From the NCBI GenBank assembly GCA_947085655.1, contig CAMTXH010000014.1:9825-73824 (forward strand): 64,000 bases of DNA, read 5' to 3'. A model generated the notes under the pieces. The model was not told the DNA's origin. It did not search any database and saw only the letters and a program-made list of their open reading frames with translations. Below, one piece after another: positions 49,501 to 63,797 of this stretch. The DNA is from an uncultured Omnitrophica bacterium. Its GTDB lineage: Bacteria; Omnitrophota; Gorgyraeia; JACQQV01. Each line of letters opens with the position of its first letter. Positions within the stretch are counted from its first letter, which is position 1. Both the position numbers and the translations under genes were made by a program.

Positions 49501-50735
49501 CATGGGTTCATCCGAGCGATCTTTTGGAACTCGGCGGAAGCGGGATGCTCGTAACCGACCCGGACTTCTGGACGCTTTGGGCTCTTTCCACGCAGGCCCG
49601 TCTGAATCTTGGCTCCTCTTTCCAACTTGCTGTTGAACGGGGTGACGTCGGATTCGATGTTTCATTTTATGATTACCTCAGAGAAGCGACAGGCGGGGGG
49701 ACTTATCGGGAAGGGATCCTTGCGGCCTTGAGAGAAAAGGGTCTCGGAAATTCGTTCCATACTCAGGGAGACTACACTCTCGGCCTTCTTTCCTATCTAT
49801 GGGATAAAGGGGAAGGAAGTGCCGAATTTGGGACTGATTTCGGGGGGGCGTATCATCTGCGGCTGCAGGGGATTCTTTTGGGTGTGCCGTTTAATGCTCA
49901 AACGGTTCTTGCAAGACATGCCTCACCCCGAGTTGACGTTGGTATTTCGCGGGAAATCACCTCCCGGGGAAAACTTTTCGCATCGCTCGGAATAAATCCT
50001 AACGAGATAGATCCTAATCAGAAGGTAAAGTTTAGTCTCGGCCTTCGGATCGGGACTTCAAGACCGAGACTTCCGACAAAGCGCGACGCCTTCAATGCGT
50101 CTCAGGTCGGCGCTTCCTTTGAAAGGGACCTGAAACGGCTGGAACATCTCGGAGAGAATCCGGAAGAACTGATTCAGGGCGCGATCCCTTCGGAACTCCG
50201 TTTGAGAAGGAGCGAGGGAGAAACCGAATATACCGGACCGAGCGTTCGGGATCTGTTTGACCGTGTGAAACAAAAAATCGACGTGTCAGAATCAATCAGG
50301 CAGCAACTGGATCAAATTCAGACCACCGCAAAGTCTCTGACGCCTTCGAAGACCGATTCGTCGCTCTATATCCATCCTGTCAGCCGTCTCAATCCTGAAA
50401 CCCGCGAACTGGTCGGAAAGATTCAAGACAAAATAGACCCAAGCGCTTTACGGCGTCTTGTTCCTCCGGAAGAAAGATCTGATCGATTGACCGCCGAACG
50501 GCTCGTCAAACTCCATGCACTTTTAGCCCATTACTTCAATGGCGGGGAAGGGATGAGAGATATTCATCTCCCTTCCGGATTCCAGTTAAATCAACTCGGC
50601 GCCATCGATGATGTTTCTCTTGAAACCATCCATGCAACGACCTATGAAGGCCTTATCCTCAAGGTTTTCCCAGAGATGCAACAGTTGGAATTGGAGCAGC
50701 AGAAGCTTCAGTCGATGCGGGAAAAGCAGGTCTAA
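46566..50735 (+). CDS. Large membrane-anchored or secreted protein (1,389 aa) with a β-rich N-terminal half, a coiled-coil middle and the shared C-terminal module
   Basis: ATG-ATG at 46566 lies 6 nt after the upstream stop; AAGGAAC overlaps that stop. N-terminus RKRQFGIRWVGLMVAQAFVFGTLLTDTAWAF...HLRQRPLASQDGG fits the leader shared by neighbouring genes. Coiled coil around 48640-49260. The last about 105 aa are homologous to the end of the 6,100-aa protein. Confidence 0.75.
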   Translation: MMNRNRKRQFGIRWVGLMVAQAFVFGTLLTDTAWAFRRNPYDHLRQRPLASQDGGMKELKAKLTGGAPTENLREVTSSPPVLNSEGARDSFRRGVLRLSLLGLLAGSGAAIPAITHAAFPLSPPAQVEVQAPDSLKAVRLARTKQAYLNAYLNYQEAFSRQNRSLRAVQEDAAWSRVDEEFFRTLEAIRQFVKFEVTAMDKVIALHTFIPGSVGNVTFDEFARLIRQDVNAPGEFYMPPDLLNQVSFDITATTELDFQDGVQIEGILTVTTARGPDQRVYQYELPVTATLKDPGKIAFHFNTLQLRNEGKITRRLIDTKGTETERDDVVLGSGQVSRIEEGVIANVSFNALWNGIGLLPRGEPVSLEIPFVLAEGVLRPGSFQVLTNNMEDVGIAPSSSELNRFPFEYQIRYADSPTLAPLSKAHGLYELTFTLTTDRRRTFVVSGQMGSLLGRGETGTLRFRLSDRPIVETFLGQRVGEVSEVPTGFYIVSLSILDLDTKSPLQPNDRLAGPVVRPNLLFVGSRVQSGSNAVATDGEWFVDGSAIYTEGRGPGTKVWAEYEIDLGPNPLEDLGLVVYARNRTPGPTGTFDLEVFVDGEPLDLGRGSPHVIRVPIHPDGLVRTSGTPAFDLPSGVHRFRLQWVNDTGPTTTLQIERVLLTIPRQAGGALSAPVAGVSIPEAGVLAEEPTRAQVREERLKQELERAKKESERRRSILEPRLLLLPEAMRHLPMELIHLLRNDQDLREAEKTLLARADEVRQAAQGVEGAEAEVATMEWLETQRKKQTAPYATARITGLNLEGTEDAVAHLKLGDWIRLGPVGLSPFVEYRFRAPYLSGKSEKDQLRDEAAEVQKALDDIEARIKAERDPEVARRLNQERDSLKNQQLALEENIAELEHLKRVLHLEENLRYGLQGFYLLSDRHLAGSFRLAGYGSPVWLEEVLPGYGHLPGLKERGTKVSESQRLRFGLPRLYEVSNTLAWVHPSDLLELGGSGMLVTDPDFWTLWALSTQARLNLGSSFQLAVERGDVGFDVSFYDYLREATGGGTYREGILAALREKGLGNSFHTQGDYTLGLLSYLWDKGEGSAEFGTDFGGAYHLRLQGILLGVPFNAQTVLARHASPRVDVGISREITSRGKLFASLGINPNEIDPNQKVKFSLGLRIGTSRPRLPTKRDAFNASQVGASFERDLKRLEHLGENPEELIQGAIPSELRLRRSEGETEYTGPSVRDLFDRVKQKIDVSESIRQQLDQIQTTAKSLTPSKTDSSLYIHPVSRLNPETRELVGKIQDKIDPSALRRLVPPEERSDRLTAERLVKLHALLAHYFNGGEGMRDIHLPSGFQLNQLGAIDDVSLETIHATTYEGLILKVFPEMQQLELEQQKLQSMREKQV

Positions 50736-50947: not shown

Positions 50948-53900
50948 ATGGACCGATTCAGGAAAAATTTCCTTTTACCCTTCAATCTTCTTGCGCTCCT
51001 GGTTACGGAGCTTTTTTTGGGATCCCTCCTCCTGATCGATTCTGCTTATGCTTCCTCCCGTCCTTCCTTTAATACGCTCCGGCCCAGGGCCTCCAAAGCG
51101 CACTCTCCTTTTTTTGATGCCCCCTTTGTTTCGACTCCGAACGATCTTAGGGCGGAAGACGGCGGAAAAAGAAAGAGCACCGAAGAAAGGTGGCGGGAAG
51201 TTTTTGTCAAAGCGCAAACACTCTATCAATTTCTTGATGAAGGCCTTTTCCAGAGGGGGGGCGGAGTAACGCGCCCCATTCCCAATTCGGGAGAGGTCTG
51301 GGAGAAAGTCGTACGGCAACTTGAGAAAATCCAAAAAACCGTCCGGCCTTACGGTGAGGAACAGATATCTCTGAGCATTCAAGAAATACTGAAGGCCCTT
51401 TACCATTACAAATATGAAAGCGGCGCGCCGGGAGGAGATATGACCAGCATTTTGATTGCGGCCCACTCCCGGGTCTCAGTTGAACTTCTACCAAGAATCA
51501 AAGCCCTTGCCGGAATCCGGAGACTTGAAGATATCGTAAGGGAGGATTTGTCAAAGACGGAGGAGATTGACCGGCGGCGGCTTCCGGAACTCCCCGATTG
51601 GGAAAAACTGGAGGAGGAAGGACAGCTTCAAGACGCCTTCATTGTTGTTTCTCTTTTGGCCGGAAAGGGAAGCCGTTTTCATGTGGGAGAAGAGAGTCCG
51701 CCGAAAGTGGTGTATCCCATCGGGAATGAACCCCTTGCTTGGTATACGCTGCAAGGAATCCGGGATCTCCGTCATGAAGGGTTTCCCACCTTTACGATTG
51801 GAATTGTTGGGGGTCATCCCACCCCGGATGGCAAATCCGACCGCGTCATGGAAAAAATCGGGACAGGGTACGTGGACCGCTATGTCCGTCAGTCGGTCCA
51901 GCGCGGTTCCGGCCACTCCGCTTTCTTTGCAACATATGCGATTCCGAAAACTTACCCCGGATACGTGATTGTTACGTCAGGAGATGTAGTGGTTCCGAAG
52001 GAGGCGCTGAAACTTTTGATTCGGGAACACCGGCGCTCGGGCGCTGCTCTTTCCATTCTCACCACCGACCTTGAGAATCCTCAAGGCAAGGGGCGAATTA
52101 TCCGAAGGGAAAACGGCATCATTGACCGGATTATGGAGCAGTCGGATATCGACCAAGTCATAGAGGAGGGAAAGACCGTTACTCTTGCAGACGGAAAGGT
52201 GCTGAGCGGCGAAGAACTCCGCGCGATTAAGGAGATCAACCTGGGTGTCTATGCTGCCAGAGCGAAGACATTTTTCGCAGCGCTCCGGGAAGTCGAAAAC
52301 GACAAACGGTTCGAAGAGTGGTATGTGACGGATGTGATTGCGGAGTTAAGGAAGCAGGATCAAAGAATCGAGGGAGTCCGTTTCTTGAAGGCATCCGATA
52401 TCCGAAAGCTTTCAGGGGCAAACGATATTTCGGAGTTCAAAAACATCGTCTCGGAATTTCTTGAGGAACTTTTGTTTCCGGATACGGTGGGGCGCATTAA
52501 TGAGATTCTGACCGATGCCTTTGGCGGCCTGGGAGAGGAGGCGCCGCTTCAGGCCCTGAACACCGTCCTGACCGCAGCCCGGGTCTATCAACATCTTCCG
52601 CCGAAGGATGGCACCAAAACATCGGACGACATCTTTCCAGAAGTGGTCTCCCGCGCGGCCAAGGTCTCAAGCGATACCATACAATTCCAGGCAGCGCTTG
52701 AACGGGAGCTTCAAGCCGCTTTTCACCATGCGCAGGATGGCGGCATCAGGGAGGGGTTCAAAAGATTGGTTGAGCTGGGGCAGACGGATATCGGAGATCT
52801 TTCGCATTGGGTCCGTAACCGGATTCTCACCCGGAAACTCCGTCATCGGAATGTGATTCTCCACGGACGGCTCACGTCCGGAGAGATTACCATCGGACCG
52901 GAAGTGGACCTGAGCGATTTTAGAGGCGGAGAGATTGCTGCGGGTACCCAGATCACCGGAAAAAGCAAAATCGGCCCCGGAACACACCTCAGCGGAACCA
53001 TCCATAATTCCGTGATTGCAGAAGGCGTCCAGATTTACCGGGGACGGGAAATCCGGGATACGGCGATTGAGGAAGGAGCGGTGGTTGAAGAGAGTAAACT
53101 CATCAATACCACTGTGGGGAGAAATGCCTACCTTGAAAACGCCCAGGTGAGCGACTACGATTTGGAAGAGAATGTCCGGGTGATTCATGCCTCCCTTTCG
53201 ATGGACGGTGAGAGTTCCTTTGGAAACGGCGTTGAAATCCGGACCGGCCCCGAGAAAGAGGGAAAATGGGAAGTCCTTGCCTATGACGGACTCACATGGA
53301 AAGAGGCAAAAGAGGTCATCACCCGGCGAGCGGACACCGCCTTCCTGACCGGCTTCCGGGAAAAGGTCGGTCGACATGTTCAGGAAGTTGCTTCCAGAGG
53401 AGGCCGCGTGGGGAGGGGAGCTGTGATTGACCGGACACCGGTTCTCAAGAATGTGAGGGTGGGGCCGTTTGCGCACATTGAAAACGCCAGGGAAATCCGG
53501 GACGCCTCTATTTTAAGCACGAAGCAATTTCCGACGCATGTCAACTCCGGCGCCATTATCCGGCATGCGATTGTCCAAGAGGGAAGTTACGTCGGGGAGC
53601 ATTCCAATGTGAGTCATGCGATTCTTTTGAAGCACTCCGGCGCTGCAGATGGCGTGAAGGTGGAAGAGTCGTGGATTGCCCCGCATTCCATCATGCGGTT
53701 CGGACATGTAGTCGCCTCTTCCATCGGGCCTTTTGTCGGAAAAAACCACCCCTCGATTTTGATTGCGGTTCAATGGCTTGAGGGGAGGGGGAATATCGGA
53801 GGGCAGCATACGGGAAGTAACCACGCCGGAACCGGCCCAACCTATGTAGCGTGGTATCCCAAATTTGCATTTTTCGGAACCAATACGGATGTTCTTTATC

Positions 53901-55915
53901 CTTTTAGGGCCGCCACCGGCCTTATTGTGGGTGCGAGTCTCACCCTTTCTCCTGAGGAAATCGGTCCGCTTCCGGACGAAGAATCAGTCCATCCTTATGA
54001 GCAGAAAATGACCATTCCCTCCCAGGAGATTGACTTTCCTTTCTCGGTGATCACAACCTCCGCCAACCCGAGATGGAATGAGATCCTCCCCGGCGGAGGC
54101 CTTTATCTTCTCCCTTACTACTTTGCGCGCCTTGAATCCAACCACCGGCATATCGTCCGACAGAAGGGAACGGAGGATGAAATCGATACCCGCGTCTTTA
54201 CCCCGGAAGTGATTGACGAAATGATTAAGGCAAGGGATCGACTCACCCGCCCGCCGGTTTCCGGGAAGCCGAAAGGAGACGATGCCCTTTACAGCGAGAG
54301 AGACTATCCGGGGCTCGGTAAAAGCATCATGACCGAACAGAGCCGGCAGAAAGCGATCAAGGCCTATGACCTGTACATTCTGTACCATATCCTCAAAGCG
54401 TTCAGGAACCGTCTCAGCCAGATTTTCCCCCATCGTCCCGAGGAGGCGCTCTTTTCGTCTCAAAACTGGCGTGTGCTTCAAGGGACCCTTCTTTTGAAGA
54501 CGGACGACGAAGCTTGGGAACATGCCCGGGGCATTTTGGAGGAGCGTTTCGGAAGAAAAATCCACCGCTGGGACAAAAAATTCGTGTTGAATCTTCTGAA
54601 ACAACTACAGATGCTCGAGAATCAATATTACAGCGGCATCCTTGACCACAAGATGAGGGAACGCGTTCGGCTGATGAAGATGTTCGACGAAGAGTTTGAC
54701 AAGATCTACATTCCGTTGAGTGAAGTGGATGCCCTTCAACTCCTTCACCGGGACTTTGAGATGGGAACTTCGGAAAATAGACGGATTCTGGATGCCGTGG
54801 CCGCCCTTCAGCGCTCTGCCGACGGAGGAGAGAAAAACAACTTCTTGGGTCTGGTTGCCCTCGGAGCAAACGCCTTTGAAGGGGGAACCCCAGACGACCA
54901 ACTCCCGAGTCTCCGGAGGATGCTTGAGCCGGTCGCAGAGTTAATTGCCGAAGGAAAAACATTCCTCCTCACACACGGAAATGGCCCGCAGGTCGGAGAG
55001 GAAGCGGTTCGGGTGGAACTTGCCAAAGAGGCGGGCGAGGCCCCTTCGATGCGGCTCCCTTACATTGTAGCCAACACCCAGGGCTCCATGGGAAGCATGA
55101 TTGCGCTCACGCTCCGGAATTTGCTCAAGGAGCGGGGTGCTGAAAAAAGGGTCGTTTACCTTTTAACCCACGTTGTGGTGGATCCGGAAGACCCTGCCTT
55201 TCAGGATCCGACCAAATTCATCGGGAAGGGGTATAACCGGGGAGATTCTCTCTATCTCGAACAGGAAAGAGGATGGACCTTTAAGGAATATCAGAACGGG
55301 ATCTGGCGCCGGGTGGTTTATTCGCCGGCTCCCCGGGAAATTTTGGAAGAAGAGATGATCAACGGCCTTTTGGATAAAGGAACGATTGTCATTGCAGGAG
55401 GCGGCGGCGGGATTCCGGTGTTTCGGAAGGGAGATGGAACGTTGGAGGTTGTTGACCATGTTGTCATTGACAAAGACCGGACGTCGGCCCTTCTGGCAAG
55501 TAACATTGGGACGCACCCATTCGTTATCTTGACAAAAGTTCCTCAGGTCTTCCTTCATTTTGGGACCGAAAGACAAACACCCCTCTCCCACTTGACATTG
55601 GATAAGGCGAGGCAGTATTTGGCGGAAGGACACTTCCCTCCCGGAAGCATGGGCCCCAAGATTGAAGCAGCGATTGATTATCTGGATAATTTTGGTTCAG
55701 AGGTCATCATCACCGACGGCCCCCATCTGCGCGAGGCCCTTGAAGGAAGGGCGGGCACCCGGATCGGCTGGCCCGTGGCCAAAGATGGGGGAGAAAAGGG
55801 AATAACACTTCAAAGTCTTCCCCTTTTCGATCTCCTGCCCCATCTTCCCAGTGCAACCCCTTCCCTGCACGAGATACAGACCCCCGCCGAAACAGCCCTC
55901 GGAAACGGGGTGTAA
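50948..55915 (+). CDS. Multidomain protein (1,655 aa): N-terminal leader, sugar-nucleotidyltransferase-like domain, left-handed β-helix hexapeptide repeats, a helical middle and a C-terminal carbamate-kinase-like domain
   Basis: ATG at 50948 is 12 nt after AAGGA. Leader LLALLVTELFLGSLLLIDSAYA...TLRPRASKA. Nucleotidyltransferase glycine motif IVVSLLAGKGSRF. Hexapeptide repeats run from about 52880. Carbamate kinase hallmarks are LVALGANAF, LLTHGNGPQVG, VIAGGGGGIPV and IDKDRTSALLA. Confidence 0.75.
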   Translation: MDRFRKNFLLPFNLLALLVTELFLGSLLLIDSAYASSRPSFNTLRPRASKAHSPFFDAPFVSTPNDLRAEDGGKRKSTEERWREVFVKAQTLYQFLDEGLFQRGGGVTRPIPNSGEVWEKVVRQLEKIQKTVRPYGEEQISLSIQEILKALYHYKYESGAPGGDMTSILIAAHSRVSVELLPRIKALAGIRRLEDIVREDLSKTEEIDRRRLPELPDWEKLEEEGQLQDAFIVVSLLAGKGSRFHVGEESPPKVVYPIGNEPLAWYTLQGIRDLRHEGFPTFTIGIVGGHPTPDGKSDRVMEKIGTGYVDRYVRQSVQRGSGHSAFFATYAIPKTYPGYVIVTSGDVVVPKEALKLLIREHRRSGAALSILTTDLENPQGKGRIIRRENGIIDRIMEQSDIDQVIEEGKTVTLADGKVLSGEELRAIKEINLGVYAARAKTFFAALREVENDKRFEEWYVTDVIAELRKQDQRIEGVRFLKASDIRKLSGANDISEFKNIVSEFLEELLFPDTVGRINEILTDAFGGLGEEAPLQALNTVLTAARVYQHLPPKDGTKTSDDIFPEVVSRAAKVSSDTIQFQAALERELQAAFHHAQDGGIREGFKRLVELGQTDIGDLSHWVRNRILTRKLRHRNVILHGRLTSGEITIGPEVDLSDFRGGEIAAGTQITGKSKIGPGTHLSGTIHNSVIAEGVQIYRGREIRDTAIEEGAVVEESKLINTTVGRNAYLENAQVSDYDLEENVRVIHASLSMDGESSFGNGVEIRTGPEKEGKWEVLAYDGLTWKEAKEVITRRADTAFLTGFREKVGRHVQEVASRGGRVGRGAVIDRTPVLKNVRVGPFAHIENAREIRDASILSTKQFPTHVNSGAIIRHAIVQEGSYVGEHSNVSHAILLKHSGAADGVKVEESWIAPHSIMRFGHVVASSIGPFVGKNHPSILIAVQWLEGRGNIGGQHTGSNHAGTGPTYVAWYPKFAFFGTNTDVLYPFRAATGLIVGASLTLSPEEIGPLPDEESVHPYEQKMTIPSQEIDFPFSVITTSANPRWNEILPGGGLYLLPYYFARLESNHRHIVRQKGTEDEIDTRVFTPEVIDEMIKARDRLTRPPVSGKPKGDDALYSERDYPGLGKSIMTEQSRQKAIKAYDLYILYHILKAFRNRLSQIFPHRPEEALFSSQNWRVLQGTLLLKTDDEAWEHARGILEERFGRKIHRWDKKFVLNLLKQLQMLENQYYSGILDHKMRERVRLMKMFDEEFDKIYIPLSEVDALQLLHRDFEMGTSENRRILDAVAALQRSADGGEKNNFLGLVALGANAFEGGTPDDQLPSLRRMLEPVAELIAEGKTFLLTHGNGPQVGEEAVRVELAKEAGEAPSMRLPYIVANTQGSMGSMIALTLRNLLKERGAEKRVVYLLTHVVVDPEDPAFQDPTKFIGKGYNRGDSLYLEQERGWTFKEYQNGIWRRVVYSPAPREILEEEMINGLLDKGTIVIAGGGGGIPVFRKGDGTLEVVDHVVIDKDRTSALLASNIGTHPFVILTKVPQVFLHFGTERQTPLSHLTLDKARQYLAEGHFPPGSMGPKIEAAIDYLDNFGSEVIITDGPHLREALEGRAGTRIGWPVAKDGGEKGITLQSLPLFDLLPHLPSATPSLHEIQTPAETALGNGV
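51630..52350 (+). other. Nucleotidyltransferase (GlmU or RmlA N-terminal-like) domain
   Basis: The LAGKGSRF motif matches the G-x-G-[ST]-R-[LMF] nucleotide-binding loop of sugar-1-phosphate nucleotidyltransferases, with an α/β pattern downstream. Confidence 0.45.
52880..53770 (+). other. Left-handed β-helix (hexapeptide-repeat) region
   Basis: Repeating [LIV]-G-x-x-x-x hexads: ITIGPEVDLSDFRGGEIAAGTQITGKSKIGPGTHLSGTIHNSVIAEGVQIYRGREIRDTAIEEGAVVEES... and VLKNVRVGPFAHIENAREIRDASIL...GAIIRHAIVQEGSYVGEHSNVSHAIL. Confidence 0.5.
54835..55770 (+). other. Carbamate kinase-like (amino-acid kinase family) domain
   Basis: Motifs VALGANAF, LLTHGNGPQVG, IAGGGGGIPV and VIDKDRTSALLA closely resemble the ArcC carbamate kinase signatures. 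Confidence 0.6.
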
Positions 55916-55921
55916 TCCCGC

Positions 55922-58900
55922 ATGATCCGGCGTCTTATCTCCGTTATCCTCATTGAAACCTTCCTATTGAGTTCCCTCGGCACAGAATTTGTACGGGCCG
56001 AGCCGGTCATCTTTTCCCAGATGTTGCTCAGGGCCCGAAGCGTTGCCAGCGACGGCTCTTCCCGCCAGGAGCTCACTGACTCCCTCCGGACTGCAGACTC
56101 AATCGAAACGCCCCAGGATGTTCCCGCGGAGACCCCCTTCGGAAGTGAAGCAGAGCTCCGGAGGAAAATTTCGGGCCAGACCTTTACGCCGATTAGAGGC
56201 GGTGCCCAGATCGAAACCGTTTATCTCAGCCGGGATCTTGCTTTGTACGTTCCCAGGTTCACCGGGGCACTTTATTTAAGCGATACGGCCCGGTCGGAAA
56301 TAGATAAAAATCCTTTTTTGAAATTTTCTTATCAGTTGGCCAATCGGCTTGGATTCCCCCTCGCCATATCCCTGAAACAAAAAATCAAGTCGGCTATCCA
56401 ACAGGTGCGGGAAGATCTCGTTGGTTCAGATCCGGTCGGCCCAGCCCTTTTACAGAGCTACCGGCTGGCGGAGGGATTGGGGCCGCTGGTCGATCCCTTT
56501 CGCGTTCTGTGGGATGTCTCCATCAAAACGAAGAAGGGGAAGGTTGTGGATTTGCCTCTTGTCATTGTGAGGGAAAGAAGTAACACCTTTCTCATCGACG
56601 ACCTGAAAAGACTGGAGAACTCCGAAGAGGCAAGACAAAAAATCGAGGAGGTCTTTCGTCTTGAGGAAACCCTTTGGGAAAAGGGGATTGTCAATCTGGA
56701 CATCCTTTTCTTAAGAAACGCCCGAACCCGAAACGGCAACGTTGTCCTGCGGGATTTGGGAAATCTGACGCAAGATGGGGCGCATGTCCTTCTCCTCTTG
56801 GAGCGGCTTCACACCGGCGGCTTCAGCCGGAGATTTCATCCCATTGAGAAAGGGGCAAGGAGGATTTCGCGATGGGTCTCGCCCGAGCTCGGGACGTATT
56901 ACAAACGCCGGGCCTACGAGGTCTATTCCGCCGAAAACTTTCTCCGTCACTGGCCCTCCCCCATTCCTTCCGCTTCCGTGTCGGACGGCGGGGACAAAGT
57001 GCCGGAAGAAGGCAAACAGATCCCCCGCTGGACTATTCCGCGGGCCGCTTTGTTAGGTTCCTTCATCCTTGTTCCCAGCGTTTATCTGTCCGTCTCTCAT
57101 TTTTTGGAAGGGTATGCTTTTTTGAGAACGCACTATACCTGGCAGACGGATGTAACAGCCGGCGCATTGATTGTCGGACTCTCTGACATGTTGGGCCAAT
57201 GGATGGCCTATCGTTCAAAGGGCGTCCCCATTCTTAAGAAACAACTCGTTCTGGCCGCGGCGCTCGGAGGTTTGTTCGGATGGACCTACGGGGTTTTTTA
57301 CCACTGGATTGAGCCGTTTTCTCTTTGGAGCCGGGTGGGACTTGCCGCTTTCATTGGAAGCGCCAAGGGGGCTGTGTATGCCCTCATGGTCGGAAAAATC
57401 AAAATGAGTTCTCTTCCCCGTTTCCGAGACCATTACCGGACGAGACGCCAGGTCGAGAAATTCGTGACAGTGATGGCGTTTGAAATACCGCTTCGATTTT
57501 TGAGACATGTCATGATTCAGGGATGGGTGGACCCTTTTTACCGCCAGATTGTGAGTTTTGCCAGTAACGCCATTCTAGCCCCCATCGGCGGATGGATTTT
57601 TAACCGCCTCCAGGTGCCCCTTCCCGGTTTGGTCCAATTTCTGGAAAATACCCTTGCGCGACTGGGGATTGATGTGAGGACGAAAAGGGCACAGGATGGG
57701 GGGCGTCAAGTCTCTTCGGCCGAAGTGGCCCGGGAAGTGGCTGAGGCGGCGCGGGAGGAAAAATGGAAAGGCGAAAGTTTTATGAAAAGCCTTTTCATGG
57801 GCGAGTTTCGTCCGGAACTCCTTTCCCCGTATCCGGTGCAGGATCCGGTCGACAAAGCGGTGGGCGATGCCACTCTTGCGGGACTCGAGAGCTTCTTGAA
57901 GGAAAACGTTGACCCGTCACAAATTGACCGCAACACCAAAATCCCCCAGGATGTCATCGATGGCCTCTTCGCCCTCGGCGCCTTCGGCATGAGAATTCCC
58001 AAGGAGTACGGGGGGCTCGGGCTTTCCCAGACCAATTATTTGCGGGCGCTTCAGCTTACGGCAAGTTACAGCCCGATCGTGTCGGCCCTTCTCTCCGTGC
58101 ACCAGAGCGTCGGGCTTCCCCAGCCGCTTAAAATCGTTTATGCAGAGGCGCAGAAAGAGGGGGATAGGGCCATCATCGAGAAGACGCGGCGCCAGATGCA
58201 GAAATACTACCCGGAAATGGCCACGCATGCCCTTTCCGCCTTTTCCATCACCGAGAAGGAAGCGGGCTCCGATCCTTCAAAGGCCTCTTTGCGCGCGGAA
58301 CGTGCGCCGAATGGAAAAGGGTGGATTCTGAACGGGAGGAAACTCTGGACGACAAACGGGCCGATCGCGCGCTACATCCTCGTCCTCGCCAGAACCCCGG
58401 ATCAGAACGGCAGACCGCAGCTCACCGCCTTTATCGTCGATACGAACTCCCCGGGACTCCAAAGAACCCGGTTGGAATTTTCAGGACTACGCGGCATCGA
58501 AAATGGGGAGTTATTGATGGACAATGTGTATGTCTCAGACGAGGATGTTTTATGGAAGGAGGGGAAAGGACTTAAAATCGCTCTTGCAACGCTCAATACC
58601 GGCCGCCTCTCCATCGCCGCGATCACCCTGGGGACCCTGAAGCGTTCTCTGAATCTTGCCCGCGGGTACGCCAGCCGGCGCATCCAGTGGGGGAAGCCGA
58701 TCGGCCAGCACGAGGCCATGGCCCAGAAAATTGCGGGGATGGCAAGGACCATCTTTGCGCTGGAGGCGGTCCTCTGGCATGCCTCCCTCCTGGTGGACCA
58801 GGTCCCCGAGGAACAACTCGATATCCGGCTTGAGTCCTCCGCGTCGAAACTGGAGACCACGGAGCTGGGATGGCGCATCATTGATGACTTGGTGCAAATC

Positions 58901-60271
58901 TTCGGCGGATTGGGATATGAAACGGCAGATTCAAAAGGGGGGCGGGGAGAGCGCCCCATCCCGGTCGAGCAGCTTTTCCGGGACTTCCGGATTACACGCA
59001 TCTTTGAGGGGACCTCCGAAATTCAGCACCTCTTCATTGCGCGGGAAGCGACCGATTTCCACTTCAAACGCGCAAAGACCCTTCTGAATCCGAAAGCCCC
59101 CCTCTCTCAAAAAGCGGCGGCTTTCCTGCGGGTGGGCCTTTTTTATCTTGCGTGGTATCCCAAACAGTGGATTCCCCGGCGGCTTTTCCTGAAGGGAGAG
59201 GAACGGTATCTTGCCCGCATGAGCCAGCGCCTGGCGCGTCATACCTTCCATCAGATCCTCCGTCATGGGCCGGGACTTGAAAGGAGGCAGTCGGTTCTCT
59301 TTCCGCTTGTCGATATCGGCGACAAACTGTATTTAAGCGCTGCCGCCCTCGCAAGAGCAGAGTCGCTTAAAGGAAAGTATCCGAATGCGGTTGCGTTGGC
59401 AGAGCGTGTCGTTAAGGAAACCCATCATGCCCTCAAGGGCCGGTCTCTTTTCCCGAGTTTAGGAATCCTCGACCGGGCAGAGGAACAGAACTATCAACTC
59501 GCCCAGCGCGTTCTCGCCGGAGAATACGCATGGCTTGAGGAAGGAATCATTCCGGATCCGGAATTTCTTCCGGATGAGGCGCTGCGTGAGGTCCTTCACT
59601 CCAACGATATCCCTCCCCGGCGCGCCCGCGCCAGGGACGAACTCCTCCGCCGGCAGGCGTCGCGGGATGGGGGAGAGAAGGACAATTTTATCCCTTATGC
59701 AGAAATCGAGGAAGCGCTCAGGTCGCTGGGCGTCCCGATTCAAAGGTCTTCGGATCCGGTCAAGGGATTCATCCGGTTTGACGCAGAAGGGACGCTTTGG
59801 GTCGACCCCTTTGTCGTGGATCATCCCGTCCCCCGCGTCTTTTTTGAAAAAGGCCTTCTCCCGGCCCTTCAGTTTGAAAAGCTTCTTTTATCCCGTTTTG
59901 GGTTTGGGAAGGAAACAGGCGCGGGCACTGAGGATCAGGAGTGGACCCTTGAAATCCTCGGGCTTCAGCCGTTCACTCAAGGAATCGTTTCGCTTTCTGA
60001 AGAAGAACGTGGGTTCATTCAAGAGTGGGTCAGTGCACGTGTTACAGAGAGTCCCCGCGAGGACTTTTTGATGCTCCGGCGGCTTTTGTCCCTTGCCGAA
60101 TGGATCGAGCAACCCGAAATCCAAGAAGGTTTTGTCCGGGATTGGCTGGAGCGGGCCCGCTCGCCGGAAAATCCGGATCGCAAGCCGGATGGCGGGAGAA
60201 GGATTTTTTTCCACGACGCCATACATCCTGCCGTCATCCAGAGACCCGTTGCGGTTGAGAGCGGCGTATAA
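55922..60271 (+). CDS. Membrane protein fused to an acyl-CoA dehydrogenase (1,449 aa): N-terminal leader, unknown domain, polytopic hydrophobic block, VLCAD/ACAD9-like ACAD core and a C-terminal helical extension
   Basis: ATG at 55922 lies 6 nt after the upstream stop. Leader ISVILIETFLLSSLGTEFVRAE. Hydrophobic block about 57040-57400. ACAD motifs: FMGEFRPELLSPYP, IPKEYGGLGLS, AFSITEKEAGSDPS, GWILNGRKLWTTNG, YETADSKGGRGE...LFRDFRITRIFEGTSEIQHLFIARE. Confidence 0.75.
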   Translation: MIRRLISVILIETFLLSSLGTEFVRAEPVIFSQMLLRARSVASDGSSRQELTDSLRTADSIETPQDVPAETPFGSEAELRRKISGQTFTPIRGGAQIETVYLSRDLALYVPRFTGALYLSDTARSEIDKNPFLKFSYQLANRLGFPLAISLKQKIKSAIQQVREDLVGSDPVGPALLQSYRLAEGLGPLVDPFRVLWDVSIKTKKGKVVDLPLVIVRERSNTFLIDDLKRLENSEEARQKIEEVFRLEETLWEKGIVNLDILFLRNARTRNGNVVLRDLGNLTQDGAHVLLLLERLHTGGFSRRFHPIEKGARRISRWVSPELGTYYKRRAYEVYSAENFLRHWPSPIPSASVSDGGDKVPEEGKQIPRWTIPRAALLGSFILVPSVYLSVSHFLEGYAFLRTHYTWQTDVTAGALIVGLSDMLGQWMAYRSKGVPILKKQLVLAAALGGLFGWTYGVFYHWIEPFSLWSRVGLAAFIGSAKGAVYALMVGKIKMSSLPRFRDHYRTRRQVEKFVTVMAFEIPLRFLRHVMIQGWVDPFYRQIVSFASNAILAPIGGWIFNRLQVPLPGLVQFLENTLARLGIDVRTKRAQDGGRQVSSAEVAREVAEAAREEKWKGESFMKSLFMGEFRPELLSPYPVQDPVDKAVGDATLAGLESFLKENVDPSQIDRNTKIPQDVIDGLFALGAFGMRIPKEYGGLGLSQTNYLRALQLTASYSPIVSALLSVHQSVGLPQPLKIVYAEAQKEGDRAIIEKTRRQMQKYYPEMATHALSAFSITEKEAGSDPSKASLRAERAPNGKGWILNGRKLWTTNGPIARYILVLARTPDQNGRPQLTAFIVDTNSPGLQRTRLEFSGLRGIENGELLMDNVYVSDEDVLWKEGKGLKIALATLNTGRLSIAAITLGTLKRSLNLARGYASRRIQWGKPIGQHEAMAQKIAGMARTIFALEAVLWHASLLVDQVPEEQLDIRLESSASKLETTELGWRIIDDLVQIFGGLGYETADSKGGRGERPIPVEQLFRDFRITRIFEGTSEIQHLFIAREATDFHFKRAKTLLNPKAPLSQKAAAFLRVGLFYLAWYPKQWIPRRLFLKGEERYLARMSQRLARHTFHQILRHGPGLERRQSVLFPLVDIGDKLYLSAAALARAESLKGKYPNAVALAERVVKETHHALKGRSLFPSLGILDRAEEQNYQLAQRVLAGEYAWLEEGIIPDPEFLPDEALREVLHSNDIPPRRARARDELLRRQASRDGGEKDNFIPYAEIEEALRSLGVPIQRSSDPVKGFIRFDAEGTLWVDPFVVDHPVPRVFFEKGLLPALQFEKLLLSRFGFGKETGAGTEDQEWTLEILGLQPFTQGIVSLSEEERGFIQEWVSARVTESPREDFLMLRRLLSLAEWIEQPEIQEGFVRDWLERARSPENPDRKPDGGRRIFFHDAIHPAVIQRPVAVESGV
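57780..59070 (+). other. Acyl-CoA dehydrogenase domain (N-terminal α, middle β, C-terminal α) of VLCAD-like type
   Basis: Conserved ACAD catalytic-region motifs, including the FAD/substrate loop SITEKEAGSD and the C-terminal IFEGTSEIQ segment where the catalytic Glu normally lies. Confidence 0.65.
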
Positions 60272-60294: not shown

Positions 60295-62655
60295 ATGACA
60301 CCGGAGAAAAAGTTCAGAAGTATTCGGAAAGAATTAATTCTCCTCGGCATTTTTCTGGCCTTTGCCGTTTTGGTTGTGGTGGTTTTTCTCTTACAGCCGC
60401 CCTTTTTGGCGCACTTTTTGCCGAAGCGGCTCGTGACAAAAGGAATGACTATCCCCGAATCGGCGGCGGTTTCACCGGCGGTCCCCGCTCCAATTCCTAC
60501 CGAGGCACCGGTTCCCCCTAAAGCAGTTCCTCCTCGCGTACAAGTCGAGGTGGTTCCGGAAAGCCTCCTCGTTGACGATTTTGATCTGGGATCGGCCCGC
60601 GGCGTTTTTAAAGAGCGTTTCAATGCCCTCGGGACCTATCAGGGAACCTTTTCAAAGCGTCCTTCCTATACGGTCCTTTCCAAGACAACAACCATCCGCC
60701 GCGGGGAGAAGGGGCGGAGTCTCATCATTGATTATTTTACGGGCGGGGGCTGGTGCGGTTATTACACCCTTTTGGCCGGAATCGACATTTCCGCCTTCAA
60801 TACTCTCTCCTTCTGGATCAAGGGAGAACAAGGCGGGGAGGTATTCGATATCGGCCTTGCGGATCAGAGAATGCAGGAACTCGAAATCGATGCCGTCTAT
60901 CTTGGGTCTGTGAACCATTTCCTTCCGCAAGGCGTCAACACTGAGTGGCAGGAGGTGAAAGTTCCGCTCGGCAAGGTTGCGGCAGACATTGACCTGACCC
61001 AGATGGGATCTTTGGTCTTTTTCTTCCGCCATGAGGGGAAGGGGCGTGTCTATGTGGAGGATATCCTGTTTAAGAACGATCCGGAAATCGAGCGGATGCT
61101 TGCGGAGAACGCCCCGCGGGCGGAAACCGACCCCCTTCATCCGAGGAGCGTTTGGGTCTGGAAGACTGACCCGGCCCAAAATCTGAAGGCGCGGAAGGAG
61201 CTCTTGGAACTCTGCGAGCGGACCGGCATCAAGATTCTCTACCTTTTTGTCGGCGATTTCTCCGAAGAGGATGACCTTGAATATGCAAAAGGGCTTGAGG
61301 GGTTCCTTCGGGAGGCGCACCAAAGAGGTCTCAAAGTCGAGGCGTTGACCGGGAACCCGATCTGGCAGATGGAGGAACAACATGAGACCGCGCTGAACTG
61401 GGTCCGTTCGTTCCTTGAGTTTAACAAAAAGCGTCCTCCGGAGGCCCGGATGGACGGCATCTCCCTTGATGTGGAACCGTATCTGGCGCAGGAGTGGAAC
61501 GAGGACCGGGAGGGGGTCAAGGCGGGCTTCCTTTCCTTATTAAGGAAGGTCCGGGCCCTGATTGAGGAGTACCCGGAGCAGGAGTTCCGGTTCGGCGTGG
61601 TTGCCCCTGTTTTCTACGCTGCGGAAGGCCCTGAATTTGAGCGGGAGATTTTCAGGAACGTGGATGTGGTGGCGTTGATGGACTACTACGACACGGCGCG
61701 GGAGATTCTGGGAAATGCCAAGTATCATCTGGATCTTGCCGAGGAAATGGGGAAAAAACTCGCCATCGGCGTCGAGACACAGGATCTGGTTGCCATCAAA
61801 CAGGGAGGGCGGCGGAACACCTTCTTCGAGGAGGGATGGGAAGGGATGGAAGAGGTTTTGAAGGAGGTGAAAAAGGAGGTGGCCTCCACCAGCGCCTTTG
61901 AAGGGTTCGCCATCCATTATGACATCAGCTACAAAAACCTTCAGAAAGGGCGGAATGTCCCGACCAAAGAAAGAAAAATACTCTATACCCTCACCGCCGC
62001 GAAGGCGCCGGTCCCCCCTGTCATTGACGGCGATCTTTCAGATTGGAAGCGGGAGGAGTACCTCTGGGTGGTAACGGAGAAGGACAATGTGGTGTACGGA
62101 CAGGGGGCCTGGCGGGGGGCAGGGGATCTTTCTTTCCAGACAATGCTTCAATGGGATGAGCAAAACCTCTACTTTGCCGCCCGAATCACAGACGACCAGC
62201 ACGTGCAGGAGAAAAAAGGAAAAGACCTCTGGGAAGGGGATCATGTGGAATTTTGGCTCGATATGGACCTTGAGGGGGATTATCTTGAAGCGGTGAATTC
62301 AGACGATGACTTCCAATTCGGCTTCAGCCCGGGTAATTTCAAATCCCTCCCCCCCGAAATCTACATCTGGACCCCTCCGCTTGATCCGGAAAACCTGAAA
62401 CTGGCGGAAGTGGCCTGTCGCAAGACAGAAGAGGGCTATGTCGTAGAGGTCCGGCTTCCTGTATCATTCCTTTTTACCACCTCCAAGCGGAACCAGACCG
62501 AAAGGATCTTCAAACTCGGCGACCGCTACGGCGTCAGCATCGATATGAGCGATACGGATGACGCCAGAGCCCCCCAGAAATCGCTCCTTTCCACTTCAAC
62601 CAACCGGATCTGGGGAGACCCGACCACCTTCGGCATTCTGGAGTTGAAAGAATGA
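60295..62655 (+). CDS. Membrane-anchored protein (786 aa) with a Pro-rich stalk, a paralogous β-sandwich (CBM-like) domain, a GH-like α/β region and a C-terminal CBM9/DOMON-like domain (tentative)
   Basis: ATG at 60295. Upstream are TATAAT (60267-60272, overlapping the preceding stop) and GGTGAG. TM helix LILLGIFLAFAVLVVVVFLL. Pro/Ala/Val-rich linker. GGGWCGYYTLL...GGEVFDIGLAD...TEWQEVKVPL domain (60580-61080). α/β region VWVWKTDP...ILYLFVGDF...DGISLDVEPY (61140-61800). C-terminal LSDWKREEYLW...WDEQNLYFAARITDD...GDHVEFWLD (62030-62640). Confidence 0.7.
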   Translation: MTPEKKFRSIRKELILLGIFLAFAVLVVVVFLLQPPFLAHFLPKRLVTKGMTIPESAAVSPAVPAPIPTEAPVPPKAVPPRVQVEVVPESLLVDDFDLGSARGVFKERFNALGTYQGTFSKRPSYTVLSKTTTIRRGEKGRSLIIDYFTGGGWCGYYTLLAGIDISAFNTLSFWIKGEQGGEVFDIGLADQRMQELEIDAVYLGSVNHFLPQGVNTEWQEVKVPLGKVAADIDLTQMGSLVFFFRHEGKGRVYVEDILFKNDPEIERMLAENAPRAETDPLHPRSVWVWKTDPAQNLKARKELLELCERTGIKILYLFVGDFSEEDDLEYAKGLEGFLREAHQRGLKVEALTGNPIWQMEEQHETALNWVRSFLEFNKKRPPEARMDGISLDVEPYLAQEWNEDREGVKAGFLSLLRKVRALIEEYPEQEFRFGVVAPVFYAAEGPEFEREIFRNVDVVALMDYYDTAREILGNAKYHLDLAEEMGKKLAIGVETQDLVAIKQGGRRNTFFEEGWEGMEEVLKEVKKEVASTSAFEGFAIHYDISYKNLQKGRNVPTKERKILYTLTAAKAPVPPVIDGDLSDWKREEYLWVVTEKDNVVYGQGAWRGAGDLSFQTMLQWDEQNLYFAARITDDQHVQEKKGKDLWEGDHVEFWLDMDLEGDYLEAVNSDDDFQFGFSPGNFKSLPPEIYIWTPPLDPENLKLAEVACRKTEEGYVVEVRLPVSFLFTTSKRNQTERIFKLGDRYGVSIDMSDTDDARAPQKSLLSTSTNRIWGDPTTFGILELKE

Positions 62656-63797
62656 AGCCCAAAATTCTCATTCTTTGCCTTTTGGTTCTATTGCTTCTGC
62701 CTGTCAAGGGTGCGGCGGAGGCCGTTTCTTTGGCGGAGTTGCCCCCTCTCAATGAGGGGATCCTGGATCCGACCGAGCGGAATTTCGGGTTCCGGGGCCG
62801 GATCGGCGGTTTCAGTCTTCCCCCCTCCCGCTACGGGACTTTTTTGGACGACGATCAATTTTATCCGGAAGGAGAAGACCGGGAATCGATTAAATACATG
62901 TATGAACGAAAAGGGGAAGATTCGTTTGTGGGGACCTATGTCATCCTTGCAGCAGACCTTTCCCAATTCAAGACGCTCACTTTTTTTGTCAGGGGCCAGA
63001 AAGGGGGGGAGACCTTCGAGATCGGATTGAACGATGTGATTTCCAACCGACGGGAGGATGCGGTTTATGTCGGTTCCGTCTACCGGTATCTCCCGGGCGG
63101 GATCACCACCGAATGGCAGAAAGTCACGATTCCTCTTTCGGACTGGTTTGGTCCGGACCTTTCGATGGTGTTCAGTCTCGTCTTCAATTTCAATGAGGAG
63201 GGACGGGGGGTCTTCTGGATCGATGAAATCGTCTTCCATACAGACTCACTCGTGGACCGGGAAGCCGAAATCGAAAAAAAAGGGCATCTCCTTTTGGATA
63301 ACTTTGACCACAGCGACCAGAATCTTCTCGGAAGGAAGAGCAACACCTACAAAAAACTTCCCTCCGTCTGCCGGTTTTCGCGGGTTGTAGAGGGTCGCTG
63401 GGGAGAGTCGGGGCGTTCCCTCCGGCTTGATTACGACAAAAAAGCGACCGGTTGGTGCGGCTATTACACCCTTCTCAACGAAATCGACGGAGACTTTTAC
63501 GACCTTTCCTGGTACGACCGGGTCAGTTTCAGGGTGAGGGGCGAAAAGGGTGGAGAGATGTTTGAAATCGGGATGGCCGACCGGAACTGGCTCACCATCG
63601 GCGATTCGGTCAAGGCGGGGCCGATTGGCAAATATCTCCCGGGCGGGATCACCACCGAATGGCAGGAAGTGATCATTCCCCTTTCCGATTTCGGGCTTCT
63701 CGATTTTGCGCAGATGGGCTCCTTTGTCATTAATTTTTACAAAAAGCAGGAAGGGGTCATTTATGTGGATGACCTCAAATTCCATTTGAGCCGGTAA
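62652..63797 (+). CDS. Secreted protein (381 aa) made of two tandem copies of the GWCGYYTLL/TEWQ β-sandwich domain
   Basis: The ATG overlaps the upstream TGA (ATGA). Signal peptide MKPKILILCLLVLLLLPVKGAAEA. Copy 1 is about 62900-63240, copy 2 about 63290-63790. An identical 33-nt segment, tatctcccgggcgggatcaccaccgaatggcag, occurs at 63087-63119 and 63633-63665. Confidence 0.75.
   Translation: MKPKILILCLLVLLLLPVKGAAEAVSLAELPPLNEGILDPTERNFGFRGRIGGFSLPPSRYGTFLDDDQFYPEGEDRESIKYMYERKGEDSFVGTYVILAADLSQFKTLTFFVRGQKGGETFEIGLNDVISNRREDAVYVGSVYRYLPGGITTEWQKVTIPLSDWFGPDLSMVFSLVFNFNEEGRGVFWIDEIVFHTDSLVDREAEIEKKGHLLLDNFDHSDQNLLGRKSNTYKKLPSVCRFSRVVEGRWGESGRSLRLDYDKKATGWCGYYTLLNEIDGDFYDLSWYDRVSFRVRGEKGGEMFEIGMADRNWLTIGDSVKAGPIGKYLPGGITTEWQEVIIPLSDFGLLDFAQMGSFVINFYKKQEGVIYVDDLKFHLSR

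Follow-up and report, generated by a model that had tools for sequence, protein, structure and literature searches.

What does an acyl-CoA dehydrogenase (ACAD) do inside a protein that begins with a signal-peptide-like leader, carries a block of hydrophobic helices, and is encoded next to giant genes? The question is raised by a 1449-residue open reading frame (ORF; hereafter, the target) in a 64,000-nucleotide stretch of DNA (contig CAMTXH010000014.1; hereafter, the window) from an uncultured Omnitrophica bacterium. An earlier note on the window had described the protein as an ACAD fused behind a leader, an unnamed domain, and 3-5 hydrophobic helices, and had regarded this covalent fusion as unusual. 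Our analysis suggests that the target is a membrane-tethered, cytoplasm-facing ACAD within a clade-specific modular protein, and that it belongs to a small, clade-restricted Omnitrophota family of modular multi-enzyme proteins; we assign a probability of roughly 0.7 to this explanation as a whole. In the order of the polypeptide, the modules are the leader, a protein-kinase-like domain (N-domain), a membrane block with approximately six helices, a long-form ACAD, a small alpha/beta domain (C-domain), and a tail (Table 1).

Records of the target exist in three assemblies, two of NCBI and one of Logan, and the copies are identical or differ by one substitution (A672T): codon 672 (positions 57935-57937) encodes threonine in the window and in the record P0153, and alanine in the record P0001 (GCA_964374045.1). 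The window is therefore derived from a sister assembly of one and the same population and not from GCA_964374045.1 itself. Since the three assemblies agree and the ORF is intact, the fusion is not an artefact of assembly, and an origin from a misassembly or a frameshift was ruled out. The relatives of the target are annotated as Candidatus Omnitrophica or Omnitrophota.

The enzyme part of the target was recognized clearly. Pfam detected all three domains of the ACAD core: Acyl-CoA_dh_N (PF02771; residues 655-746, E = 3e-12, 47.3 bits against a gathering cut-off of 22.9), Acyl-CoA_dh_M (PF02770; residues 773-869, E = 3e-20, 72.5 bits against 33.3), and Acyl-CoA_dh_1 (PF00441; residues 881-1042, E = 5e-34, 117.9 bits against 22.4). 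The closest solved structures were ACAD9 (8phe, 2e-61) followed by VLCAD (8ca1, 7s7g, 3b96, and 2uxw), and the phmmer alignments to the VLCAD structures reached query position 557, corresponding to approximately residue 1156, through the C-terminal extension. The catalytic glutamate, which the earlier note had located near EGTSEIQ, is present as E1029, and the blocks TEKEAGSD, LWTTNG, RIQWG, and GGLGYE also align to ACAD9 with high confidence. Consequently, the description of this part as a complete VLCAD/ACAD9-like ACAD with a C-terminal extension held, and the cassette is apparently a functional enzyme, judged by its alignments and catalytic residue. The model for the C-terminal domain of ACAD9 and VLCAD (ACAD9-ACADV_C, PF21343) was not listed for the target at E of 0.1 or below, and PF21263 matched weakly at 0.056; PF21343 is on record for P0004, a 50%-identical relative. 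The top NCBIfam match was the long Bacillus-type FadE (residues 657-1152), with 191 bits against an equivalog cut-off of 600. The target scored 39.9 bits with the FadE_coli model (NF038187) against a cut-off of 1300, which is a weak match; what it has in common with E. coli-type FadE is the general combination of transmembrane helices and an ACAD. An ACAD-fold sugar N-oxygenase was rejected on the basis of the catalytic glutamate and the long-form architecture. A recent foreign origin of the cassette was also rejected, as its GC content at third codon positions (0.67) is within the range of the neighbouring genes (0.52-0.69).

In order to find other proteins with this enzyme, residues 592-1257 were searched exhaustively against 1.84 billion representative proteins, which gave 29,660 matches with E up to 0.001. 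The best 150 of these matches are 31-56% identical to the query and are mostly stand-alone or fragmentary; the full-length proteins nearest the top are almost all stand-alone enzymes of 600-650 amino acids (aa) with 42-50% identity. The N-termini of the stand-alone enzymes (e.g., P0004, ...EARDVAEAARESEWREPSF) align directly after the Asp-Gly-Gly (DGG) sequence at residue 592, from approximately residue 598, and the last conserved C-terminal motif of the ACAD, AWLEEGI, is located approximately 45 residues before the DGG at residue 1249. One relative, P0007, is encoded in a beta-oxidation operon together with an acyl-CoA synthetase, a thioesterase, a FadB-like hydratase/dehydrogenase, and a thiolase. 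None of the best 150 matches contains the other modules of the target. Two proteins considered as possible sister fusions were rejected, P0009 because its ACAD is fused to FadB and P0075 because it is a chimeric fragment. The ACAD alone is an ordinary enzyme in an odd place.

The architecture around the enzyme can be compared with that of known ACADs. The three-domain core and the helical C-terminal extension of approximately 180 aa are shared with VLCAD, ACAD9, and bacterial FadE-type enzymes of 600-650 aa, as is the catalytic glutamate in the (I/R)FEGT(S/N)EI motif; E is around 1e-61 for both ACAD9 and VLCAD. Membrane association belongs to the biology of the long-form ACAD family; E. coli FadE is held at the membrane by N-terminal helices and VLCAD by its C-terminal domain. 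Unlike these enzymes, the ACAD of the target is internal to a 1449-aa protein, flanked by DGG junctions and other modules. E. coli FadE (814 aa) resembles the target in that a beta-oxidation ACAD is placed covalently behind hydrophobic membrane helices; however, it has two or three very hydrophobic helices (Kyte-Doolittle 2.1-2.2) within the first ~60 residues and a different C-terminal domain, whereas the six helices of the target form a conserved block of ~200 aa and further domains are present. Transmembrane (TM) helices are also present in P0005 (1040 aa, from a 3.1-kb JGI contig), whose ACAD is 48% identical to that of the target. The claim of an unusual membrane fusion can therefore be retained in part: the exact combination is found in no other protein among the best 150 of the 29,660 matches, but the kind of fusion has precedents in E. 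coli FadE and P0005. Of the three TM helices of P0005, two are N-terminal and one separates the core from the C-terminal extension, and P0005 may represent a second, independent membrane-embedded version of the same ACAD branch. A 15-aa insert after PQPLK in the ACAD of the target is shared in its position only with P0005.

The modules surrounding the ACAD were then characterized. Pfam and NCBIfam assigned no family to the N-domain, the membrane block, the C-domain, the leader, or the tail. The leader pattern was observed in nine of nine aligned family members (Kyte-Doolittle mean of 1.66 in the target) and is common to the ORFs of 7091, 6100, 1389, and 1655 aa in the window and to relatives elsewhere, in agreement with the shared leader of the earlier note. 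A basic LR(P/A)R.S stretch follows the leader in eight of the nine members, the exception being the 7091-aa giant, and ends with DGG, DGS, or DGA.

The domain between the leader and the membrane block, left unnamed in the earlier note, matched neither Pfam nor any PDB entry by sequence or profile. An AlphaFold 2 (AF2) model of the N-domain and C-domain homologue in P0003 had a mean confidence (pLDDT) of 68, in which the C-domain was moderately well modelled. When the N-domain model was submitted to Foldseek against the PDB, all of the top 50 matches were protein kinase domains, including Syk, FAK, PknB, and CDK2, with E down to 2e-4 and low TM-scores of 0.25-0.39. In the family alignment, 18 residues separate the aspartate of the invariant N-x-D-x5-N from that of R-D-L-G. 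This spacing agrees with that between the catalytic loop and the DFG motif in protein kinases. We therefore regard the N-domain, with moderate confidence, as protein-kinase-like on the basis of the model. A genome scan with the N-domain alignment recovered only the contig of P0003, and a first metagenome scan gave no match.

The hydrophobic block noted earlier is indeed a multi-helix block, but it is wider than described: six hydrophobic segments span residues 377-561 (positions 57050-57604), and they are only moderately hydrophobic, with 19-residue Kyte-Doolittle means of 1.2-1.7. The block is conserved in P0002 and L006 and has no Pfam family, PF04117 included. A limited resemblance to the Mpv17/PMP22 family, which consists of small membrane proteins, was observed. 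The pattern Y..L...Y(P/T)WQ....GA...GLSD..GQ of the block is in register with TM1-TM2 of an MPV17 sequence (hhalign probability 37%, E = 3.6e-4, 69 columns); this value was obtained with three sequences, and two sequences gave 12%. The block differs from Mpv17/PMP22 in that it has six hydrophobic segments instead of four, begins with an additional helix, and does not match PF04117.

The C-terminal ~200 aa, which comprise a conserved domain and the tail, were absent from the earlier note, as were the DGG junctions and the cassette architecture. Conserved copies of the C-domain stand after the N-domain in P0003 and after carbamate kinase in the upstream gene of L004; no known relatives of the C-domain and the tail were found. 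An SGV-type peptide after the last DGG closes nearly all family members, including P0002, P0003, L005, L006, and L007. Class I PDZ ligands and C-terminal sorting signals have ends similar to S-G-V. A second type of tail (...LPL..LP..P.A.PSL.EI..P) is found on the 1655-aa gene of the window and on the upstream gene of L004.

The distribution of these modules was revealed by comparison of the syntenic loci. A first homologue search found two relatives other than the target itself, P0002 and P0003. P0002 (1629 aa) aligns to residues 1-590 of the target with 42% identity and continues into an unrelated payload of ~1000 aa. P0003 (2256 aa) contains a nucleotidyltransferase, a left-handed beta-helix (LbH)/DUF4954 module, and carbamate kinase, followed directly by the N-domain and C-domain of the target type, another module, and the same tail. 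Both are located at the syntenic position of the target, upstream of a gene encoding carbohydrate-binding modules (CBM30/CBM9) that is ~65% identical between the loci. Using this CBM gene as an anchor, 23 metagenome loci were recovered. In the window, a gene ending in carbamate kinase and a tail precedes the target. In L004, the upstream gene ends in carbamate kinase, the C-domain, and a tail, and the next gene consists of the leader, the N-domain, the membrane block, a module X, and a tail. In L007, a gene composed of the leader, a nucleoside triphosphate (NTP)-transferase, LbH, an unassigned module, an aminotransferase, and a tail is followed by a gene composed of the leader, a module W, and a tail; the aminotransferase occupies the place where carbamate kinase sits elsewhere. 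L003 has a single fused gene in which the modules of the upstream gene are joined to the N- and C-domains of the target. In L005, the carbamate kinase gene is directly followed by the CBM gene and the slot of the target is empty, and L006 carries another payload in the slot. The ACAD was found only in the genome of the window and is absent from the five syntenic Omnitrophota sister loci. In distant loci with ~50% identity of the anchor, the upstream genes are unrelated and almost no DGG is present. Judging from this comparison of loci, the ACAD is one swappable cassette bounded by two junction motifs. As a separate observation on L005 (1-2046), its tail combines sequence known from the junction of the Y module of P0003 (SRDGGGKGK) with the SGV tail, which is what an internal deletion between two junctions would leave behind.

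The borders between the modules are marked by DGG. The target contains four copies against 0.37 expected from its composition. The summed distance of the four copies from the homology breakpoints is 18 aa, and only 7 of 200,000 random placements were as good, the breakpoints for this test having been compiled after the fact. The DGG contexts of eight family proteins have the consensus [AS]-[RKQ]-D-G-G-x-[KR], often after R-x-R-S, and with the DGS or DGA of some homologous sites the family consensus is [AS]-[RKQ]-D-G-[GSA]-x-[KR]. After shuffling, ~0.01 copies of the strict motif are expected per protein, and up to four were seen; 27 copies in eight proteins fit [AST]xDG[GSA]x[KRH]. The codons of the motif vary freely (GAC or GAT, and GGN), which means that the peptide and not a DNA site is selected, and a role of the motif as a DNA-level recombination site was rejected for this reason. 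In the AF2 model of P0003, the junction between the N-domain and the C-domain is disordered. In the gene upstream of the target, a complete carbamate kinase begins ~8 residues after one DGG and ends ~6 residues before the next. The motif is degenerate (DGQ and DGD) at two junctions of L006, and the 7091-aa giant has the leader but no junction motif of the DG[GSA] type, indicating that the junction grammar is not universal. No report of a DGG or double-glycine motif in Omnitrophota was found in searches of the literature, and the junction motif is apparently undescribed. From its sequence and positions, we consider it a candidate processing site of the double-glycine type, at which the protein might be cleaved. 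Aside from the motif itself, the residues upstream of DGG (positions 56024-56059 and 59651-59674, and homologous junctions) are often R-x-R-S or R-R-x-x-S. Such sequences resemble the sites of basophilic protein kinases, and phosphorylation of the linkers may be possible, given the kinase-like domain in the family.

The location of the ACAD was considered from the charges in the membrane block. Counted loop by loop along the block, lysine and arginine residues number 4, 1, 4, 0, 8, 1, and 5, and this pattern is kept in P0002 and L006. H2 is the weakest segment, and the basic H4-H5 loop and the segment after H6 are predicted to be inside whether or not H2 spans the membrane. The charges thus place the segment after H6, and therefore the ACAD, inside in both the six-helix and the five-helix models. 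In addition, the C-domain is found behind three different modules (carbamate kinase in L004, the N-domain in L003, and the ACAD in the target), so all of the modules should share one compartment. The only shared compartment predicted to fit the positive-inside rule is the cytoplasm, with six helices. In such an arrangement, the ACAD would act as a FAD-dependent alpha,beta-dehydrogenase of acyl-CoA, probably of medium to long chain, and would probably be a dimer like VLCAD. Tethered by the preceding helices, it would oxidize acyl-CoA at the membrane's cytoplasmic face and pass electrons to an acceptor of the electron transfer flavoprotein (ETF) type encoded elsewhere, either within the fusion or once excised at the DG[GSA] sites.

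Several observations weigh against this reading of the target as a cytoplasm-facing, membrane-tethered enzyme. The leader resembles a cleavable Sec signal peptide, with an AxA-type end in nine of nine members, and is shared with a giant protein carrying a peptidoglycan-binding domain; both observations point to export. AF2 modelled the membrane block as six long helices with an unreliable pLDDT of 38, and given this value and the moderate hydrophobicity of the segments, the polytopic topology is a prediction. The target falls far under every NCBIfam equivalog cut-off, so these models do not assign it a substrate or a chain length. Neither the window nor the readable rest of the contig contains a gene for ETF, acyl-CoA synthetase, hydratase, or thiolase. 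Finally, the family sample is small, consisting of nine proteins from six loci of one narrow clade.

The signals that point to export lead to the alternative that the leader truly serves secretion, by Sec or by a dedicated route, that the products of all genes bearing it (giants and enzyme strings alike) leave the cytoplasm, and that the ACAD and the other enzymes act in the periplasm, on the surface, or in prey, as an exported enzyme array resembling the effector arrays of MARTX toxins. In each of the nine leaders, a basic N-region precedes a hydrophobic core and an [AVS]-x-A end, the same leader is found on the 6100-aa peptidoglycan-binding-domain protein and the 7091-aa giant, proteins with carbohydrate-binding modules are encoded next door, and Omnitrophota are thought to be predatory. 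The payloads nevertheless require cytoplasmic cofactors and substrates (FAD, acyl-CoA, ETF, ATP, and NTPs), and basic residues stand right after the putative cleavage site, e.g., AWA|FRR. Basic residues directly past a cleavage site disfavour Sec export. A model with all of the modules outside would also break the positive-inside rule, with the basic loops (8 and 5 lysine and arginine residues) on the ACAD side of the block, and one compartment is expected for a C-domain that follows carbamate kinase in L004 and the ACAD in the target. Thus, export of the enzyme appears unlikely to us, even though the multi-enzyme long proteins of Omnitrophota are mostly called as having a signal peptide plus TM helices (bioRxiv 10.64898/2026.06.07.730766). 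The same tension between a signal-peptide-like start and cytoplasmic-type enzymes is found in the long proteins of that study and of bioRxiv 10.1101/2023.11.21.568195. The earlier note had offered another role at the locus, namely that the ACAD might supply or remodel acyl chains for the lipid anchoring of giant surface proteins. The points in its favour are the location beside the giant genes, the leader shared with them, and the acyltransferase-like LbH module of the upstream gene. This proposal found no support. Five syntenic sister loci keep the other genes without an ACAD, which indicates that the locus does not need it; the relatives of the ACAD are stand-alone, and one belongs to a beta-oxidation operon; the surroundings show no lipobox, lipoprotein-processing gene, or lipid transferase; and the LbH module is GlmU-like, pointing to sugar-nucleotide chemistry. 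We give a lipid-anchoring role almost no credence. It also seems very improbable that the ACAD is mainly structural, i.e., a scaffold or assembly factor as ACAD9 is for the assembly of complex I. ACAD9 is the top solved relative, no beta-oxidation partners are encoded at the locus, and the ACAD is a module within a string of unrelated domains; however, the catalytic glutamate is kept, the blocks shared with ACAD9 align with high confidence, and the nearest relatives (42-50% identity) are ordinary stand-alone bacterial ACADs that are closer to the target than ACAD9.

The remaining alternative is compatible with the tethered, cytoplasm-facing enzyme and adds a maturation step to it. The target may be a polyprotein whose DG[GSA] junctions are cut by a Gly-Gly-specific protease, e.g., a double-glycine peptidase of the C39 type, which is reported to be a common domain in the long and giant proteins of Omnitrophota; the leader and the tail would be removed, the kinase-like domain, the membrane block, the ACAD, and the C-domain would be freed, and the ACAD would become a free long-form enzyme. 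We regard such processing as a real possibility, although short of an even chance. A motif is present at every module border, it is conserved as a peptide and not as codons, and it is situated in a linker predicted to be disordered. The third position of the DGG tripeptide is limited to G, S, and A in nearly all copies. This agrees with the tolerance of double-glycine-type sites at P1. At most junctions, the conserved residues are mainly upstream of GG (R-x-R-S-x-A-x-D-G-G), and the native N-termini of the ACAD and carbamate kinase are a few residues past GG, a geometry of leader-type recognition. Moreover, the same set of modules is encoded by one gene in L003 and by two genes in the window, L004, and L007, suggesting that covalent linkage is not needed for function. 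Against these points, Pfam, NCBIfam, and PDB sequence searches of the genes of the window detected no protease domain, and the exceptions described above, the degenerate sites of L006 and the motif-free 7091-aa giant, also count against processing. Classical double-glycine leaders have hydrophobic residues at -4, -7, and -12, whereas the motif has R, K, or Q at -4 and A or S at -5, and the upstream residues are rich in arginine. The likeness to double-glycine processing by C39/PCAT thus consists of an invariant glycine followed by G, A, or S that recurs between the modules and after the leader, and cleavage there is an inference; the differences are an invariant aspartate at P3, a basic or polar P4 instead of a hydrophobic one, a cargo of large folded enzymes instead of small peptides, and a window that encodes no cognate protease. 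Comparison by analogy could extend to the LXGG sites at which viral papain-like proteases cut polyproteins and to the cuts between the effector domains of MARTX toxins. More tentatively, and with considerable doubt, [AS]-[RKQ]-D-G-[GSA]-x-[KR] could be the processing site of a cellular polyprotein system in bacteria, in which a clade of Omnitrophota would encode complete metabolic enzymes as swappable cassettes (ACAD, carbamate kinase, GlmU-like transferase, aminotransferase, and kinase) placed between the leader and the tail and cut apart by a Gly-Gly-specific protease.

Long proteins of Omnitrophota provide the closest context for this architecture. Multi-enzyme strings with a signal-peptide-like start and TM helices have been described for the phylum (bioRxiv 10.64898/2026.06.07.730766), and giant proteins of Omnitrophota carry C39 and S8 peptidase domains, with cleavage suspected at points that are not known (West-Roberts et al., bioRxiv 10.1101/2023.11.21.568195). 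The target resembles the "multi-enzyme metabolic cluster" proteins and the Archaeovorin-type giants in that a single polypeptide, with TM helices and a start like that of a signal peptide, is tiled by unrelated enzyme domains. The multi-enzyme architecture is seen in the kinase-like domain and the ACAD of the target and in the GlmU-like, LbH, carbamate kinase, and aminotransferase modules of the sister genes. Like those long proteins, the target is encoded beside giant genes and carbohydrate-binding proteins, and cleavage is suspected. It differs from them in its size, 1449 aa against 10 kaa (thousand aa) or more, which makes it a small relative of that class, and in having no C39 or SecA-like domain. 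The two studies make no mention of an ACAD, the junction motif, the grammar of leader and tail, or the swapping of cassettes between syntenic loci. What matters most at this locus is the grammar around the ACAD: complete enzymes are placed between a shared leader and a shared tail, each border has a DGG, and the contents of the slot differ by genome. If the junction peptide is indeed a processing site, it would be the first concrete grammar of cleavage sites for the long and giant proteins of Omnitrophota, whose dissection, according to the literature, is hindered by the lack of known cleavage points. A statistically solid junction motif in small, tractable members (1.4-2.3 kaa) makes the question of cleavage testable. 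It also sharpens the topological paradox of a signal-peptide-like leader placed ahead of enzymes that require cytoplasmic cofactors.

Table 1. Features of the target ORF and neighbouring genes, with nucleotide positions in the window and residue numbers of the target
Feature	Positions	Strand	Residues	Remarks
Whole ORF	55922..60271	+	1-1449	1449 aa plus stop; leader, N-domain, membrane block, ACAD, C-domain, and tail
Family leader	55922..55999	+	1-26	MIRRLISVILIETFLLSSLGTEFVRA; basic N-terminus, hydrophobic stretch with conserved E/Q, [AVS]-x-A end
Leader-proximal junction-type motif	56024..56059	+	35-46	LLRARSVASDGS; DGS variant; the homologous site is DGA in P0002 and DGG in L007b, w6100, and w1389
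N-domain	56144..56959	+	75-346	Predicted protein-kinase-like fold; conserved GGxQ, NxDxxxxxN, and RDLG
Junction 1 (DGG)	56984..56992	+	355-357	SVSDGGDK; homology with P0003 ends at residue 346; equivalent in P0002 is VARDGGDR
Membrane block	57032..57613	+	371-564	H1 377-395, H2 411-429, H3 442-460, H4 472-490, H5 514-532, H6 543-561
Junction 2 (DGG)	57695..57703	+	592-594	KRAQDGGRQ; homology with P0002 ends at residues 588-590
ACAD cassette	57704..59656	+	595-1245	Pfam N/M/C domains at 57884-59047; VLCAD-type C-terminal helical extension at ~59048-59551
Codon of catalytic base Glu1029	59006..59008	+	1029	RIFEGTSEIQ; aligned to the Glu of ACAD9 IFEGTNEIL
Junction 3 (DGG)	59666..59674	+	1249-1251	QASRDGGEKDNF; C-domain homology with P0003 and L004 begins at residues 1246-1251
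C-domain	59675..60181	+	1252-1420	Small alpha/beta plus helical module
Junction 4 (DGG)	60188..60196	+	1423-1425	RKPDGGRRIFF; DGG before the tail also in P0002, P0003, L005, L006, and L007a
C-terminal tail	60197..60268	+	1426-1449	Ends in RPVAVESGV; family consensus [KR]P[VI]x V[EG][SG]GV-COOH
Downstream CBM30/CBM9 gene	60295..62655	+		786 aa; conserved synteny anchor
Upstream sister gene	50948..55915	+		1655 aa; leader, GlmU-like nucleotidyltransferase (its residues 233-499), LbH/DUF4954, carbamate kinase, tail
7091-aa giant	6750-28025	+		Leader; no Pfam match; no junction-type DGG
6100-aa giant	28257-46559	+		Leader; sole domain PG_binding_1 (its residues 1054-1127); ~six loose junction motifs

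The neighbouring genes share some of the features of the target. In the 1655-aa upstream gene, carbamate kinase occupies residues 1303-1606 and matches profile positions 5-307 of 309 above the cut-off of NF009007, and there are four DGG junctions between the parts of the protein. On the other side of the target, the CBM30/CBM9 gene (786 aa) and a CBM30 gene (381 aa), located at positions 60295-63797, are partly paralogous, and their synteny is conserved far more widely among Omnitrophota loci (L003, L004, and L005-L024) than is that of the DGG-modular genes upstream. The TTG start of the 7091-aa ORF (positions 6750-6766) overlaps the end of the preceding 905-aa ORF by 17 nucleotides, and its true start is uncertain; in the Logan record, the gene caller placed the start several codons further on, which gives 7085 aa. 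The 6100-aa giant (positions 45975-46556) and the 1389-aa protein (50163-50732) are homologous over their last ~190 aa, with 41% identity, and this shared C-terminal module differs from the SGV tail. The 1389-aa protein is an orthologue of a partial 1720-aa ORF in L003.

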